IMG/VR virus record: IMGVR_UViG_3300045988_133854
Location: 1 to 33,614 of that record
Strand: one strand, 5' to 3'
From: a virus
DNA: 33,614 nt
Each line of letters begins with the position of its first letter. Position 1 is the stretch's first letter. A program made the translations under genes and the position numbers. Of the stretch, positions 20,219 to 27,258 are shown piece by piece. Below the pieces are notes generated by a model. The model was not told the origin of the DNA. It searched no databases and saw nothing but the letters and a program-made list of their open reading frames with translations.

Positions 20219-20231
<13 letters not shown>

Positions 20232-20524
20232 TCCTTCTTCGCCTCGATGTTAGCTATTGCCTTGTCAGAGCAAGGTATGATCTGGACAGCGTTGGCGACT
20301 ACCAGCTCAGGCACGGCCACCGTGATCTTGCTGCTGTCGTTGCAACCTTCCTGCGAAAGCTGCTCCACGGCTGCCGCACCGTCCCAGTACCACACCTTGC
20401 GGGCGTTGGCAAGACGGACGTTCAGCCCGTTTGCATCACTGCTCACCTCTTTGACCTCGCCGAAGAAGACCCCGGCGCCATAGCATCTCACGATGCACTT
20501 CCTTCCGATGTAATTTTCCATCAT
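20219..20524 (-). CDS. Conserved phage protein of unknown function (101 aa)
   Basis: 'IGRKCIVRCYGAGVFFGEVKE...LANARKVWYWDGAAAVEQLSQEG' recalls a family seen in many siphophages. The function is unknown. Confidence 0.62.
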
Positions 20525-20563
20525 TTTTGAATCATTAAAAGTTAAACAATAAGTAATAAACTC

Positions 20564-20669
20564 TGGCCCGGGGCGCGGAGTCGAACCGCCTTTGAGCCTG
20601 CTTTACGGGTGTTGTGTCGTTTGTTGTGTCCACGTACTCCCGCCGTCCCGTGACGGCCTTCTCCCCGGG
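20564..20669 (-). ncRNA. tRNA-shaped element 2 (106 nt) ending in CCA; non-canonical
   Basis: Perfect 7-bp acceptor CCCGGGG/CCCCGGG. 6-bp hairpin GCCGTC-ACGG-GACGGC. Imperfect hairpin with a 20-nt CA-rich loop (two GACACAAC copies). T-arm GCGG-TTCGACT-CCGC, then CCA (20564-20566). There is no 7-nt anticodon loop. Confidence 0.3.
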
Positions 20670-20702
20670 CTTCTCGCGGCTCGCGCCGGTACCCGTCCTC
20701 CG

Positions 20703-20784
20703 CTCCCCGGCGGGGAATCGAACCCCGCTGCCGCCCAAACGCCGCTCCGGCGCGCCGGAAGCTCCTCATTCCGGCCTTCGGGAA
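20703..20784 (-). ncRNA. tRNA-shaped element 1 (82 nt), degenerate
   Basis: Perfect T-arm CGGGG-TTCGATT-CCCCG (20711-20727). Acceptor TTCCCGA/CCGGGGA pairs at 6 of 7 positions. D-like arm GCCG...CGGC. The anticodon arm is replaced by CGCCG-GAG-CGGCG. Confidence 0.3.
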
Positions 20785-21001
20785 GTCCCTCGGGCGAACG
20801 CTCACCGCCGGCCCTCGGGTTGCACACATAATCAATAACACTAATGACTAATTCGCCGCGATAAGACCCGCGCGGCGGCGGGTTTGCCTCATACCTGCTT
20901 CGTTTCTCTCTTTCCTTGCCCGTTTCCCAGCCCTCTCGCAGACTTTCGTCCGCAAAACAAGGCTTTCCTCACCTCAACCCGAAAAACGCCGCCAAATCGC
21001 C

Positions 21002-21235
21002 TTATTTCCCCTCGCTCTCCTCAACCGGACGAATCCACCAGTCGTTCAGGGTCCTCCCGACCTCTATCCGCCCCGAATCCCTCAACTCCGCCAGCCTGGA
21101 GAGAAGCTCGCTGTCCGGCATCCCCCGACCATATGCCCATCGCCTCAGGTCAAGAAGCAGGACGTGGCGGGGCAGGGCGTTCCGGCACCTCAACGCGGAC
21201 ACCCTCCGCACGATCTCGTCAAGAACCCCCTCCAT
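21002..21235 (-). CDS. Small winged-helix-like protein (77 aa)
   Basis: ATG at 21235; the track start at 21244 is a TTG. 'SELLSRLAELRDSGRIEVGRT' is wHTH-like. Confidence 0.5.
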   Translation of the reverse strand: MEGVLDEIVRRVSALRCRNALPRHVLLLDLRRWAYGRGMPDSELLSRLAELRDSGRIEVGRTLNDWWIRPVEESEGK

Positions 21236-21986
21236 CGGCTCCAACCCTCATGTCGTCGCCAACCAGCTCGACGTAGTTGCACATCGTGTGCAGCCTCGAC
21301 CACACCCTGTCGCCGTAAGCCTTGCGGATGGTGGCGAAGCTGAAGTTGCTCGTTATGATCGTGAGCCGCCCGGGCGTGTCTCCCCTCAGCTCCAGGAACT
21401 CCCTCATCACCTCCTTGCGGTTGCCCATGTACAGCGTCTCGCGAGGCTCCGATCCGAGATCCTGGATCCCGATAATCCGCATAGACTGGAAGTATGCCAA
21501 AGAGCCGTCCCTTGCGTAGGCGTCGCATATCATCGCGGCGGAAGGGTCGGAGAGACTCCACATCGACAGGGAGTCTCCACCGAAGGTGAACTTCGCGCCG
21601 AAGGCGGTCAGCATCATCTTCAGGATCCGCACCGCCGTGGTCTTGCCGCTCCCCGGGTTGCCGGCTATGTAAAGACCGCGGCACGGGTCGCCGTCTACCC
21701 ACGCGCCCGTGTCCGGGTCCTGGCACCGGAACGGGAGGTTCGCCGCCCACGCCGAGAGCGCCGAGTAGGCATCCGACCTGCCCGCCGTCACGCGGAAGCC
21801 GGGAACCATCTGCCGCGCTATCCCCTCGAACAGCCACCACGCGGCCTCGGGCGTGTAGCCCGACGCGCTCCTCCTTATCCTCGGATAGCTCTCCGACACC
21901 TTCAGGTCGGAGACTATCTTGTCGATGTAATCCTTTGTCAGCATAGATTTATCTTTTTGAATATCCTGAACTTTTCCTTTGAACAT
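21219..21986 (-). CDS. DnaC/IstB-like AAA+ helicase-loader ATPase (255 aa)
   Basis: Walker A 'GNPGSGKTT' and Walker B-like 'RIIGIQDLG'. Lies downstream of the replication initiator. ATG 21986 follows the upstream TAG at 21991. Confidence 0.8.
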   Translation of the reverse strand: MFKGKVQDIQKDKSMLTKDYIDKIVSDLKVSESYPRIRRSASGYTPEAAWWLFEGIARQMVPGFRVTAGRSDAYSALSAWAANLPFRCQDPDTGAWVDGDPCRGLYIAGNPGSGKTTAVRILKMMLTAFGAKFTFGGDSLSMWSLSDPSAAMICDAYARDGSLAYFQSMRIIGIQDLGSEPRETLYMGNRKEVMREFLELRGDTPGRLTIITSNFSFATIRKAYGDRVWSRLHTMCNYVELVGDDMRVGADGGGS

Positions 21987-21990
21987 GCCG

Positions 21991-22587
21991 CTAAAAATCG
22001 CCACGGTTCTTCCAGTCGGACGTGGCGTCCATGAACTTGCTCTCTCCGCCGGCGGCGGTCTTCGATGCGGCCCTCTGAGAGTCTATGTCCGTCCAGAGCT
22101 TGGCCTTGGCGTACAGGTTGAAATATGGGTCGCCCTCGGCCCTTATCGCCTCGCTCCCCGGGCGGTGGGCGCACCAGTGGTCGAGGAATCTTGCCCTCTG
22201 CTCCGGAGACATGCGCAGACCCTCGGACTCCAGGCGCGCGGCGGCCCTGTCAAGAGCCTCGGACATCTTCCTCCTCTTTACCTCCGCTATCCTGTCCGGG
22301 TCGAAGCCGCACCTGTCACGCTGCACGGACGAGACGTAGAAAAGGCCGCTCTCGTCCCCGGAGGGTACCGGGGGGCTGGGGGGCTGGGGGGTGGTCTGAG
22401 GTGGATTCTCAGAACCGCATTCGTGCGTGCGCACACGTGCGTCACACGCGCTTGTGATGTTATTATTATCTTTATTATCTGGGATAGGGGGGTGCAGGGG
22501 GGAAAGGGATGCAATTTTTGCACGGGTTTTTGCCGTTGATTGCACGGGTGCAATTTTTGCACCCCTCCAAATCGAGGGAATACTCAT
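21991..22587 (-). CDS. Replication initiator, C-terminal portion (separate frame; 198 aa as drawn)
   Basis: The C-terminal half 'RARFLDHWCAHRPGSEAIRAEGDPYFNLYAKAKLW' resembles the C-terminal domains of phage replisome organisers. The N-terminal third is translated through repeats and a Pro-rich linker. Confidence 0.5.
   Translation of the reverse strand: MSIPSIWRGAKIAPVQSTAKTRAKIASLSPLHPPIPDNKDNNNITSACDARVRTHECGSENPPQTTPQPPSPPVPSGDESGLFYVSSVQRDRCGFDPDRIAEVKRRKMSEALDRAAARLESEGLRMSPEQRARFLDHWCAHRPGSEAIRAEGDPYFNLYAKAKLWTDIDSQRAASKTAAGGESKFMDATSDWKNRGDF
22363..22562. other. Putative origin of replication embedded in the initiator gene (G-tracts, AT-rich stretch, phased TGCA(A/C) iterons)
   Basis: G-tracts at 22363-65, 22370-75, 22378-83 and 22386-91. 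AT-rich stretch at 22455-22480. TGCAATTTTTGCAC at 22510-23 and 22549-62. TTGCACGGGT at 22518-27 and 22540-49. Confidence 0.45.
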
Positions 22588-25241: not shown

Positions 25242-26450
25242 ATGGCAAAAGTATCGTATTATCTCAAAAACGTCAAGGCGGGCGACGAAGCGCCGCTCTA
25301 CCTGAAAATATCACACGACTACAAAAGCGCCCTCCTCCTCGTGGGCAAGATCAGGCCGGAGGACTGGGACGCGGAGCACCAGACCTACACGGGCCGCAAC
25401 TTCGGGCTCAGGACACACATCAAGAGCCTCGCCACGCAGGCGGTGGACATCATCACGGATCTGCGCTACTCCGGGGAACTCGCCACGATGACCGCCGGGG
25501 ACATCGTCGGGCGGATCAGGCAGGAGGCTTTCGGGGAAAAACCCAAGAAGAAGGGCGGGGATTTCCTCAACGCCCTCAAGGACTACCGCGACAATTGCTT
25601 CAAGCCGGGCACGCGTGAGGTATATGACCGCACGGTCAAGGCGCTCACAGCCTTTGACGCATCAATTGACGAAAGGTCATTCAACGACATCAACCGCGCC
25701 TATCTGGAGCGGTTTGAACGTCATTGCAGGGATACAATGACAATCAACTCCATCGCCATTCTGCTGCGCAACATCCGCACGGTCTTCAACAAGGCCATAG
25801 ATGATGGCAAAACCGACTTCTACCCTTTCCGCGCCTTTAAGATCAAACAGGAGGAGACAAGGAAGAGGGCACTCACCGCCGAACAGCTTGCGTGGCTCAT
25901 TAATATGGAGCCGTGCTTCGGATATGAGGAAGCAAGGGACATATTCCTGCTTTTGTTCTATCTTATCGGAATCAACATCGCCGACCTTGTCGCGGCAAAA
26001 AAGACCTCTGTAAAAAACGGTTACCTCAACTACAGGCGCGCCAAGACGGGGCGGCTGTATTCCGTGAAAATCGAGCCGGAAGCGGCTGCGATAATAAAGA
26101 AATATGCGGGCGCAACGCATCTTGTCAACGGCCTTGAACGCTATGCCACCGAAAACTCCTACCTGTCAAAAATCAACAAGCGGCTGAAATATTTAGGATG
26201 TCCGCGGGGTAAGCGCGGCAAGATCTTAGGCGAAGGACGTTTCGCGGATTTGTCAACCTACTGGTCACGCCATACCTGGGCGACCATCGCCTACGAGATA
26301 GGCATTCCGGTTGACATAATCGGCCAGGCTCTGGGACATTCAGACAAGTCGCACAGCGTCACATTCATCTACATCAAGGAAGACCAAAGCAAGGTGGACG
26401 AGGCGAACAGGCGGGTGATCGATTACATAAAGAAAATGGCGGGCCAATAG
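25242..26450 (+). CDS. int: Tyrosine-type site-specific integrase (Bacteroidota phage-integrase architecture, 402 aa)
   Basis: N-terminal arm-binding-like region, SAM-like core-binding region, and C-terminal 'WSRHTWATIAYEIGIPVDIIGQALGHSD...TFIYIK' (R, H and the Tyr nucleophile). Lies adjacent to the tRNA fragment. Confidence 0.92.
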   Translation: MAKVSYYLKNVKAGDEAPLYLKISHDYKSALLLVGKIRPEDWDAEHQTYTGRNFGLRTHIKSLATQAVDIITDLRYSGELATMTAGDIVGRIRQEAFGEKPKKKGGDFLNALKDYRDNCFKPGTREVYDRTVKALTAFDASIDERSFNDINRAYLERFERHCRDTMTINSIAILLRNIRTVFNKAIDDGKTDFYPFRAFKIKQEETRKRALTAEQLAWLINMEPCFGYEEARDIFLLLFYLIGINIADLVAAKKTSVKNGYLNYRRAKTGRLYSVKIEPEAAAIIKKYAGATHLVNGLERYATENSYLSKINKRLKYLGCPRGKRGKILGEGRFADLSTYWSRHTWATIAYEIGIPVDIIGQALGHSDKSHSVTFIYIKEDQSKVDEANRRVIDYIKKMAGQ

Positions 26451-26798: not shown

Positions 26799-26839
26799 AA
26801 TTTGTTGTAAATTTACCCCCGAGAAATCGGGGGCTTTGG

Positions 26840-26965
26840 TTAAACTTCGTCCTTGAGAGCATTAAGGAGGCCCTCAATTCTCCTTATGATCGATTGATTG
26901 GCCGGAGTTTCGATCAGTTCAAGCAGTCTGAAAATCTGACCAATCAATCTCTTTTTATAACTCAT
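26840..26965 (-). CDS. Possible 41-aa ORF (MSYKKRLIGQIFRLLELIETPANQSIIRRIEGLLNALKDEV)
   Basis: Hand translated. AT-rich context. Too short to be confident. Confidence 0.3.
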   Translation of the reverse strand: MSYKKRLIGQIFRLLELIETPANQSIIRRIEGLLNALKDEV

Positions 26966-27051
26966 TTCATTTTCACACCTCCTTTATTTTGTTGATACAA
27001 AGATACATAATAATTTTATTATATGCAAGTATTTTATGATTATTTATTAAT

Positions 27052-27088
27052 AAAAAAAACTACACGTGAACCACACGTGTAGTTTTTA
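27052..27088. terminator. Bidirectional rho-independent terminator
   Basis: A-run, then 10-bp perfect stem ACTACACGTG / CACGTGTAGT (27059-68 / 27074-83) with a 5-nt loop, then a T-run. Lies immediately after the RHH gene stop at 27091. Confidence 0.7.
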
Positions 27089-27090
27089 AC

Positions 27091-27258
27091 TCACATCTTC
27101 GCTACCATTTCGTCCACGCACCGCCCAATCGAAAAGCCCGTCCTTCTGAGCTCGTCGATGCGTCTTCTGGTCTCCGGCTTAATCTTGATCGTGTACGGGA
27201 CTTTCGGGGCGTCGCCCGAAGGCTTGCGCCCCGCCCCTGCCCTTTTACCTCCTCTCAT
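27091..27258 (-). CDS. Ribbon-helix-helix (CopG/Arc-like) DNA-binding protein (55 aa, not in the ORF track)
   Basis: Hand translation gives MRGGKRAGAGRKPSGDAPKVPYTIKIKPETRRRIDELRRTGFSIGRCVDEMVAKM*. It has a beta-strand then two helices. Its ATG overlaps the upstream TGA (ATGA). Confidence 0.55.
   Translation of the reverse strand: MRGGKRAGAGRKPSGDAPKVPYTIKIKPETRRRIDELRRTGFSIGRCVDEMVAKM

Follow-up and report, generated by a model that had tools for sequence, protein, structure and literature searches.

Tandem tRNA-shaped RNA modules without a decoding half in temperate phages of human-gut Bacteroidales

The question raised by this locus is whether tRNA-shaped sequences that lack any means of decoding are remnants of tRNA genes or RNAs that a phage maintains in their own right. 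The sequences lie in an island at positions 20525–21001 of IMG/VR virus record IMGVR_UViG_3300045988_133854, which was analysed over its full 33,614 nucleotides (nt), here called the window. A sequence-only reading had described two tandem elements on the minus strand, each folded by hand into a four-way junction, and had considered decayed phage tRNA genes, mimics of the YrlA/Y-RNA kind, decoys or a new structured RNA as possible identities. From comparison with homologous loci, we conclude that the modules constitute a selected RNA family with structure beyond chance expectation. Covariation indicates that each module keeps a tRNA top half (acceptor and T stems stacked coaxially over 13 positions, the T-loop UUCGANU, and GG in the D-loop) and has no decoding half: in place of the anticodon arm there is either a short hairpin or an insert that is long, variable and largely single-stranded. 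The RNA family is previously undescribed and belongs among the tRNA mimics. The parts of the two modules in the window, elements 1 and 2, are as follows (bp, base pairs; aa, amino acids).

20525–21001, minus strand: island, between an 80-aa gene and the DUF6948 gene, both on the minus strand.
20785–20703, minus strand: element 1, 83 nt, tRNA-shaped (covariation in alignment A2).
20785–20779 with 20709–20703, minus strand: element 1 acceptor stem, 7 bp.
20775–20754, minus strand: element 1 D arm, a 7-bp stem with an 8-nt loop that includes GG.
20753–20739, minus strand: hairpin in the anticodon position of element 1, 5 bp with a 5-nt loop.
20738–20729, minus strand: conserved 10-mer of element 1, UUGGGCGGCA.
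20728–20710, minus strand: element 1 T arm, 6 bp, loop UUCGAUU.
20670–20566, minus strand: element 2, 105 nt, tRNA-shaped, the core found in every instance (covariation in alignment A5).
20670–20663 with 20573–20566, minus strand: element 2 acceptor stem, 8 bp, GCCCGGGG/CCCCGGGC.
20657–20642, minus strand: hairpin in the D position of element 2, 6 bp with an ACGG tetraloop.
20641–20590, minus strand: anticodon-position segment of element 2, comprising GGGAGUACGU, a CA-rich stretch with two copies of GACACAAC, and AAAG.
20589–20575, minus strand: element 2 T arm, 4 bp plus a conserved G·G, loop UUCGACU.

Searches with the DUF6948 protein and with DNA patterns, covering IMG/VR contigs, human-gut metagenome assemblies and one Bacteroidales metagenome-assembled genome, recovered the island in 57 instances that represent 34 distinct versions. 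So far, the family is confined to one clade of human-gut temperate Bacteroidales phages. A much more divergent locus, L114 (loci are cited by number where they must be told apart), was reached via a 70%-identical DUF6948 protein; nearly every stem sequence differs there, and the architecture is the same. An exact scan of IMG/VR for the element 2 T-arm plus acceptor returned no match because the acceptor covaries. Among the candidates discarded, 11 of 12 matches from a scan of genome collections were chance occurrences in GC-rich genomes, and about 38 of 65 metagenome matches (among L047–L111) belong to an apparently unrelated conserved soil sequence family that does not fit the element 2 architecture. 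A 20-nt T-arm pattern also matches L064 and L085, where the T-arm is perhaps part of another irregular tRNA-like RNA.

Helices are preserved through compensatory change in both modules. In alignment A2 (12 distinct sequences of element 1), 98.6% of cells are paired and 13 pairs have changed on both sides, three of them in the T-stem and six in the D-stem, which has seven pairs; slid controls give 37–58% paired and zero or one double change. L037 and L101 carry an extra compensatory change in the element 1 acceptor, CUCCACG/CGUGGAG. For element 2 (alignment A5; 19 distinct sequences, including divergent L114), 98.0% of cells are paired and ten pairs are double-changed, six of them in the acceptor (out of eight), three in the D-stem and one in the T-stem, and slid controls reach 37–54% and zero to two. 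The L114 acceptor is wholly different in sequence (GCGGCGGG/CCCGCCGC), and the G·G mismatch that flanks the T-stem is kept even there. Over all three module types (the third, absent from the window, is described below), 98–99% of cells are paired, versus 36–65% in slid controls, and 5–13 pairs are double-changed. The T-loop, UUCGA(U/C/G)U, varies little if at all, and every D region contains GG. The acceptor/T stack has 13 positions in all modules, as 7+6 in element 1, 8+4 plus G·G in element 2 and 8+5 in element 3; the canonical 7+5 (12-bp) stack was found in none of them. Folding energy was uninformative for this GC-rich sequence, the 271-nt core giving a minimum free energy z of -0.04 against dinucleotide shuffles. 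Conserved U·G pairs would be C·A mismatches on the other strand; thus, the minus strand is the sense strand, as had been proposed.

These results uphold the two four-way folds drawn by hand, for which covariation among homologous islands had been named as the check, and they fit the suggestion of a new structured RNA or tRNA mimic, given the conserved, strand-specific covarying folds. All sequences that the sequence-only reading quoted lie where it placed them, including the T-arms CGGGG-TTCGATT-CCCCG (20727–20711) and GCGG-TTCGACT-CCGC (20589–20575). Some boundaries needed correction. The tRNA shape and T-arm of element 1 stand, and its acceptor begins at 20785 and its T-stem has 6 bp. For element 2, the tRNA shape and the CA-rich stretch with two copies of GACACAAC (20630–20623 and 20618–20611) are retained, and the acceptor has 8 bp instead of 7. 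The imperfect stem drawn below the CA-rich loop is not conserved: RNAalifold found no consensus fold for the central segment of about 52 nt, and there are at least six types of insert. Also unconserved is the terminal CCA ascribed to element 2, the stem being followed by CA(A/G) and relatives having UCA.

The segment in the anticodon position is variable in both modules. In element 1, it is either the short 5-bp hairpin or a covarying 8-bp stem with a 15–19-nt loop that is CA-rich or U-rich depending on the phage; the D-loop, of 8 nt in the window, ranges from 7 to 9 nt across relatives, GG included. The 12-bp palindrome CCGGCGCGCCGG at 20758–20747, singled out earlier as a feature, is present and unconserved, and it appears to be a by-product of two adjoining helices. 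A CCGARGG motif occurs three times in a row 5′ of and at the start of element 1 (20787–20785 region, and in relatives) as CUCCGACGG, CCCGAGGG and CCCGAAGG. In a locus 94% identical to the window (L011/L022, IMGVR_UViG_3300045988_091212), a 16-nt deletion, UUUGGGCGGCAGCGGG, takes the 5′ half of the element 1 T-stem and so destroys the T-arm; either element 1 may be dispensable or the deletion may be an assembly error. The sequence types of the element 2 insert share GGGAAUACGU and an A/CA-rich tract, and most have GAUGAUUUUGA, which is missing from the type found in the window. The insert start (20641–20632 and relatives) contains the palindrome ACGU in all close relatives and UACGUA in many, and L114 has the palindrome GAAUAUUC at the matching place. 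As speculation, such palindromes could support loop–loop dimerisation.

The number of modules per phage is one (element 2 alone, in the L006 group), two, as in the window, or three. The third, element 3, is a mascRNA-like module of 57 nt located between elements 1 and 2 in L002, L007, L014, L016, L037, L048, L091 and L197. Its acceptor has 8 bp and its T-stem 5 bp, a D-stem is lacking, there is a hairpin of 5 bp, and the first acceptor pair is G:C in all versions. In alignment A4 (seven sequences), 99.2% of cells are paired and five pairs are double-changed, with 44–65% and zero or one in slid controls. In L037 and L101, there is no leader, and element 1 begins about 12 nt past the point where an upstream gene stops. 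In L005, a gene has been inserted right after the 3′ strand of the element 2 acceptor, and homology breaks there. The RNA is a mosaic whose modules can be exchanged independently, with element 2 as the constant core; its break-points fall at module ends (L005 and the L006 group). Loci with element 3 also have two conserved hairpins in the interval between elements 1 and 2, CCUCG-CAAG-CGAGG and AAGGUA-GCCCAGGAGU-UACCUU, neither of which occurs in the window.

Each of the known classes considered, tRNA, tmRNA (transfer-messenger RNA), YrlA, mascRNA and allo-tRNA, fails to fit in at least one defining feature. Neither the window nor the islands of L001–L017 gave a tRNA or tmRNA call in ARAGORN with default settings. 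Rfam 15 had nothing at gathering score in the window, where lax thresholds gave only noise at E>2, and no tRNA, tmRNA or Rfam family was called in homologous islands either. Thus, of the searches that had been recommended, those with ARAGORN and Rfam recovered no ordinary tRNA or known RNA in the island. The best matches, all sub-threshold, are to selenocysteine tRNA (tRNA-Sec; 16 bits and E=3.2 for element 1, 26.4 bits for L197, gathering score 47) and to mascRNA-menRNA (RF01684; 16.2 bits for element 1 of the window, 26.6 bits and E=0.004 for element 3 of L197, gathering score 42.5). The resemblance to mascRNA is one of shape only.

The means of forming a tRNA elbow are present (T-loop UUCRANY and D-loop GG), and a canonical 7-nt anticodon loop with U33 and purine 37 is not conserved among orthologues of either element. 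The earlier statement that the elements have no such loop and cannot decode is borne out, as element 2 has no consensus stem-loop and the element 1 loop has 5 or 15–19 nt. Calls do appear when ARAGORN is relaxed to 90% or 80%; orthologous modules then disagree in anticodon (Arg-CCG, Pyl-CUA, Thr-AGU, Gly-UCC and Arg-GCG among versions of element 1). We rejected these calls, which rely on alternative stems without covariation, and also the calls of permuted tmRNA, which were inconsistent and confined to the 80% threshold. Likewise set aside was an anticodon-like loop (UUGAUGA or CAGAUGA) in some versions of element 2; it lacks U33, is closed by four or five weak A-U pairs and is absent from the window type and L114.

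The G3·U70 pair of tmRNA was not found: position 3:70 is C-G or G-C in element 2, G-C in element 3, and U·G, C-G or U-A in element 1, never in the G3·U70 orientation. A tmRNA-like tag reading frame was rejected by eye: the possible frames vary from one variant to another, and none ends as a degradation tag does. The proposed kinship to YrlA or Y RNA does not hold: the RNA ends in an acceptor stem, no Y RNA was matched in Rfam in the window even at E up to 10, and no Ro/Rsr (TROVE) or RtcB domain was found in the 50 window open reading frames (ORFs) scanned, in agreement with the remark that an Rsr/Ro gene is lacking. Closest in geometry are the tRNA-Sec-like allo-tRNAs and the polycistrons of irregular tRNAs described by Mukai et al. 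(2017; PMC5389517), which combine an 8/4, 9/3 or 8/5 acceptor/T branch with a 6-bp D-stem and tetraloop. Element 2 has this geometry, in a covarying 8-bp acceptor, a 6-bp D-stem with an ACGG loop and a 4-bp T-stem plus G·G, including in L114. However, an anticodon stem-loop and a long variable arm are part of the allo-tRNAs, several of which decode in E. coli (PMC5389517); the phage modules have neither arm, and no consensus for one was found in them.

How might such RNAs be made and used? We tentatively prefer the reading that the transcript would be cut by host tRNA-processing enzymes to give stable, non-decoding, tRNA-shaped small RNAs, the inserts of which would be the effector parts. The array would be transcribed with or just after the replication genes, and each module would be handled as a pre-tRNA, with a 5′ cut by RNase P and a 3′ cut by RNase Z or exonucleases. 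CCA would be added after 3′ processing, and because it is not encoded it would have to be added post-transcriptionally. Stable RNAs of about 83 and about 105 nt would be released, and the downstream mRNA would gain a processed 5′ end. As a scaffold, the tRNA shape could then provide for processing and stability, and the variable insert would do the work, in trans, on a partner that may be protein or RNA; the predicted Sm-like DUF6948 protein is the first candidate for it. Three observations point this way. In L037 and L101, where the modules have no leader, release would need processing. The likeness of element 3 to mascRNA, which is excised by RNase P and RNase Z, supports processing. The position of mosaic break-points at module ends supports co-transcription and processing.

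Several points weigh on the other side. Processing by RNase P and RNase Z is suggested by shape alone, and the non-canonical 13-position stack and 8-bp acceptors might impair some tRNA enzymes. The deletion in L011 wrecks the element 1 T-arm, such that element 1 may be dispensable. The window insert of element 2 lacks the AUUUUG and GAUGA motifs carried by most relatives, and no complementary match of at least 10 nt was found within the window as an antisense target for this insert, which is below shuffled expectation. Promoter evidence from a Bacteroidetes-type scan is weak, and a scan of the window for sigma-70 promoters and intrinsic terminators gave nothing. Finally, DUF6948 loci of other phages adjoin tRNA-like sequence in only 4 of 71 cases, and L112 and L115 have no such RNA. 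The link between protein and RNA may, for this reason, be positional only.

A rather unlikely alternative is that the modules act in cis as punctuation: cutting by RNase P and RNase Z would part the replication transcript from the DUF6948/late transcript, leaving that mRNA with an AU-rich leader that is short and unstructured, and the excised RNAs would have no function. The array does sit at the boundary of gene blocks, element 2 is always the last module, 41 nt 5′ of the DUF6948 start and separated from it by a conserved AU-rich spacer, and some loci have no leader or promoter-like block. However, one tRNA-like site would suffice for this purpose, and up to three module types plus GNRA hairpins are kept. 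Blocks of the insert (GGGAAUACGU and the CA-rich tract) are conserved that mere cleavage sites would not need, and L005 has an extra gene between element 2 and DUF6948.

Unlikely too, in our estimation, is that the modules are decoys or sponges that titrate host factors recognising the acceptor/elbow half, such as tRNA-targeting nucleases, acceptor-end toxins, or tRNA-modifying or CCA-adding enzymes. Phages are known to counter tRNA-directed defences with tRNAs of their own, several modules per transcript would raise the dose, and selection keeps exactly the acceptor/T/D top half and drops the anticodon loop. However, most known anti-phage tRNA nucleases cut the anticodon loop that the modules are missing, and the family is limited to one narrow phage clade. 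Furthermore, no defence or anti-defence gene was identified near the array (family scans of the neighbours; the PADLOC library was not searched).

A further proposal, which we regard as distinctly unlikely, is that modules and protein together form a phage ribonucleoprotein (RNP), in which the tRNA body would provide processing and stability and the variable, single-stranded A/CA-rich insert, which in most relatives also contains AUUUUG, would be held by an Sm-like ring. It turns on the neighbouring gene.

20219–20524, minus strand: DUF6948 protein, 101 aa, directly 3′ of the island (Pfam PF22253, E=1.4e-23).

The AlphaFold2 model of this protein (pLDDT 94.2, from a 34-sequence alignment) has an N-terminal helix followed by a strongly bent five-stranded beta-barrel. 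In a Foldseek search of the PDB, 49 of the top 50 matches are Sm/LSm proteins (probability 1.00, E=3e-3 to 1.6e-2), including archaeal SmAP, AF-Sm1, and spliceosomal Sm and Lsm chains, with target-normalised TM scores of 0.64–0.76 for the archaeal and Sm-core matches. Thus, the prediction of an Sm/LSm-like fold carries high confidence. No Sm1/Sm2 motifs were detected, and a profile search of PDB sequences with DUF6948 found no Sm protein. The family is conserved (alignment A3) and is present at no fewer than 577 IMG/VR loci in phages. As a lead, the modelled fold makes DUF6948 the first candidate RNA partner of the modules. A general association of DUF6948 with tRNA-like RNA across phages was sought and not found, and the adjacency seen here may be one of position. 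In the distant loci L018 and L019 (3369–3443), a tRNA-Arg(CCU) lies near DUF6948; L184 (370–612) has a tRNA-Ile(UAU) and an unassignable tRNA there, and L185 (45–127) has a tRNA with a 4-base anticodon call. Similar folds are predicted in T4 GoF, MotB.1 and Frd.2, small phage proteins with an LSm-like model that are suspected to act on RNA (PMC12152347). DUF6948 shares the modelled Sm-like fold with these and with Hfq/Sm proteins, and differs in having no sequence similarity to them and no detectable canonical Sm1/Sm2 motifs. If it exists, the RNP would be an Hfq/sRNA-like or Ro/Y-RNA-like system of Hfq-less Bacteroidales phages, for riboregulation or for capture of host RNA-handling factors. 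Bacteroidota are generally regarded as lacking Hfq, so that an Sm-like protein encoded by a phage, together with a candidate RNA partner, would offer a concrete way into the RNA biology of these bacteria.

It is very improbable that the modules are non-canonical adaptor RNAs that HisRS (via an 8-bp acceptor with G-1:C73) or SerRS (as for tRNA-Sec-like allo-tRNAs), for example, would charge for use on or off the ribosome, or that they act as a miniature tmRNA. The 8-bp acceptor, the 4-bp T-stem with unpaired G and the 6-bp D-stem with tetraloop of element 2 are traits of allo-tRNAs and irregular tRNA polycistrons, and irregular tRNAs with G-1 are reported to be charged by HisRS and to go unused in translation (PMC5389517). 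The first acceptor pair is G:C in 15 of 19 versions of element 2, as in all versions of element 3. However, it is A:U in the other 4 of 19 element 2 versions and CCA is not encoded. A 7-nt loop with U33 is not conserved, orthologues do not agree in the anticodons that relaxed thresholds yield, and G3·U70, a conserved tag frame and a default tmRNA call are all missing.

Compensatory changes in homologues also count against coding sequence and DNA-level elements, and we consider it highly improbable that the island encodes protein (a DUF6948 N-terminal extension or a separate ORF) or serves as an origin or attachment site. ORFs of at least 60 aa run across 20535–20841 in five of the six frames, and the island comes after the replication genes. 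Public gene calls (P0001, P0002, P0004 and others) stretch DUF6948 N-terminally to 136–175 aa through the GC-rich RNA (window 20525–20841). However, an in-frame TAA at 20605–20603 precludes such an extension in the window, other callers place no gene in the corresponding 679 nt (L197–L200), and the extensions are probably annotation artefacts. Indels in the modules and insert lengths are not multiples of three, the variation is pairwise compensatory and strand-specific (U·G pairs), and the integrase lies 4.7 kb away. The island holds no credible gene, as the description of it as non-coding had stated.

The decay of functionless tRNA pseudogenes, proposed earlier as one identity, is the least credible explanation: temperate phages often have tRNA genes in such places, a real tRNA-Arg lies beside DUF6948 in L018 and L019, and L011 has its 16-nt element 1 deletion, but compensatory double changes keep the helices in all three module types across loci 72–95% identical while loops diverge, and the architecture persists in L114.

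Non-decoding tRNA mimics are known in eukaryotes and their viruses, as mascRNA, herpesvirus TMERs (tRNA-miRNA-encoded RNAs) and plant-virus tRNA-like structures, and in bacteria, as YrlA and tmRNA. Closest to the phage array in shape and proposed mechanism are mascRNA and the TMER units. After excision by RNase P and RNase Z, mascRNA receives CCA. Like the phage modules, mascRNA / MEN-beta (RF01684) is a small non-decoding tRNA shape within a longer transcript, with an acceptor, a canonical T-loop and a reduced D region, and it has a short hairpin in place of the anticodon arm. Unlike them, it is vertebrate and nuclear; the phage RNAs occur in tandem with 13-position stacks, the D arm is complete in elements 1 and 2, and both of these contain a large insert. 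In the TMERs of murine gammaherpesvirus 68 (MHV68), the tRNA-like part recruits host tRNA-processing enzymes, and small RNAs are released. These too are viral tRNA-like units in series with stem-loops, and they are non-aminoacylated, as the phage modules probably are; however, a TMER is a eukaryotic Pol III unit, its hairpins are pre-miRNAs, and it bears no sequence relation to the phage array.

Among bacterial RNAs, tRNA-Sec shares the 13-position acceptor/T stack (ordinary tRNAs have 12 bp). YrlA and other bacterial Y RNAs share a non-coding, non-decoding tRNA-like domain with T-arm, D-arm and acceptor-like stem, whereas the ends of YrlA form the Ro-binding stem at the anticodon position and its acceptor-like stem is capped; the phage modules end in the acceptor stem. 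The tmRNA shares an acceptor and T-arm with a stemless D region (as in element 3) and other structure in place of the anticodon arm, and differs from the modules in its G3·U70, its pseudoknots and its conserved tag ORF, all of which they lack. In design, the nearest counterpart is the engineered tRNA scaffold (the approach of Ponchon and Dardel, used in PMC3753655), in which a cargo RNA replaces the anticodon arm and the chimera is processed and stabilised like a tRNA. Elements 1 and 2 likewise combine a constant tRNA body with a variable anticodon-position insert; the scaffold is a laboratory design, and we infer that the phage may use the same principle. As the array resembles a natural scaffold with a variable cargo site, it could help to express RNAs in Bacteroides. 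A catalogue of phage structured RNAs with more than 10,000 candidates mentions tRNA-like candidates in general terms (PMC10690425). In Rfam 15 and the literature searched (the tables of PMC10690425 were not compared), no description was found of a DNA-phage RNA family in which tRNA-shaped modules lacking an anticodon stand in tandem. The family is short and well defined, occurs in human-gut Bacteroidales phages and makes definite predictions, namely RNAs of about 83 and about 105 nt, cleavage by RNase P and RNase Z, and CCA addition. It also adjoins a widespread uncharacterised phage protein family, DUF6948, modelled here with an Sm-like fold.

The modules are embedded in a leader, spacers and linking hairpins, all on the minus strand.

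20986–20953, minus strand: possible Bacteroidetes-type promoter, TTTT/TTTG, a 21-nt spacer, then TTGTTTTG, just past the stop of the 80-aa gene.
20953–20938, minus strand: leader hairpin GCGGAC-GAAA-GUCUGC with a GNRA loop, read from sequence.
20937–20884, minus strand: purine-rich spacer (sequence, AT/GC skew).
20883–20866 and 20877–20854, minus strand: two overlapping, mutually exclusive hairpins, ACCCGC/GCGGGU and CGCCGCG/CGCGGCG.
20853–20823, minus strand: AT-rich block AAUUAGUCAUUAGUGUUAUUGAUUAUGUG 5′ of the modules, kept in most leader-bearing loci.
20819–20787, minus strand: H0, a GC-rich irregular hairpin before element 1, seen by eye only and the weakest part of the anatomy.
20688–20677, minus strand: inter-module hairpin c, CGGC-GCGA-GCCG, with a GNRA loop.
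20565–20525, minus strand: AU-rich 41-nt spacer from element 2 to the DUF6948 start codon, near-identical in most loci.

The promoter-like block scores 8 of 10 in a pattern scan in which 178 window sites reach the same score, and by eye it is kept in most homologous loci. Variants of the leader hairpin in relatives still pair when inspected by eye, for example CGGAU-UAAA-AUUCG in L014. The 7-bp hairpin noted earlier in the island was located at about 20877–20854, and by eye it shows one compensatory change, C-G to U-A in L007. Together, the exclusive hairpins (20883–20854) resemble a terminator/antiterminator pair, and no U-tract follows either in the window; in L002, UUUUAU follows the first of the two. 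The AT-rich block is absent where element 1 directly follows another gene (L037 and L101). Counterparts of H0 in relatives are GNRA-capped, for example CGCC-GCGA-GGCG. Hairpin c has at least seven stem variants, all of which pair and all of which have a GNRA loop, including GCGCG-GUGA-CGCGC, GCGGC-GUGA-GCCGC, GCGGU-GCGA-AUCGC and GCGCA-GCGA-UGCGC.

Based on its gene content, we assign the window to a near-complete genome of a temperate siphophage with a Bacteroidales host. Genes that lie near the island or identify the phage include the following.

21002–21244, minus strand: 80-aa gene, last of the replication block and 5′ of the island (ORF list).
21219–22004: DnaC-like helicase loader of the replication block, matching phrog_50.
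25242–26450: integrase with Phage_int_SAM_5 and Arm-DNA-bind_5 (Bacteroidetes-type) domains.

Also encoded are a BACON-domain protein, TerS, TerL, portal, protease, capsid, RusA and HNH proteins, an M15 endolysin and a holin. The 80-aa gene matched no Pfam, PHROG or NCBIfam family, and the neighbouring ORFs gave no RNA-related clue in Pfam, PHROGs, NCBIfam or PDB sequences. A BLAST search with the island and 20 kb of the window found no match among GenBank phages. The G+C content is 71% in the core of the island (20563–20812), versus 57% for the whole window. The description of the island as the longest gene-free stretch is approximately right; the second-longest apparently gene-free gap, of 359 nt (about 26799–27157), adjoins the integrase and a DUF5053 gene and is plausibly the attP region.

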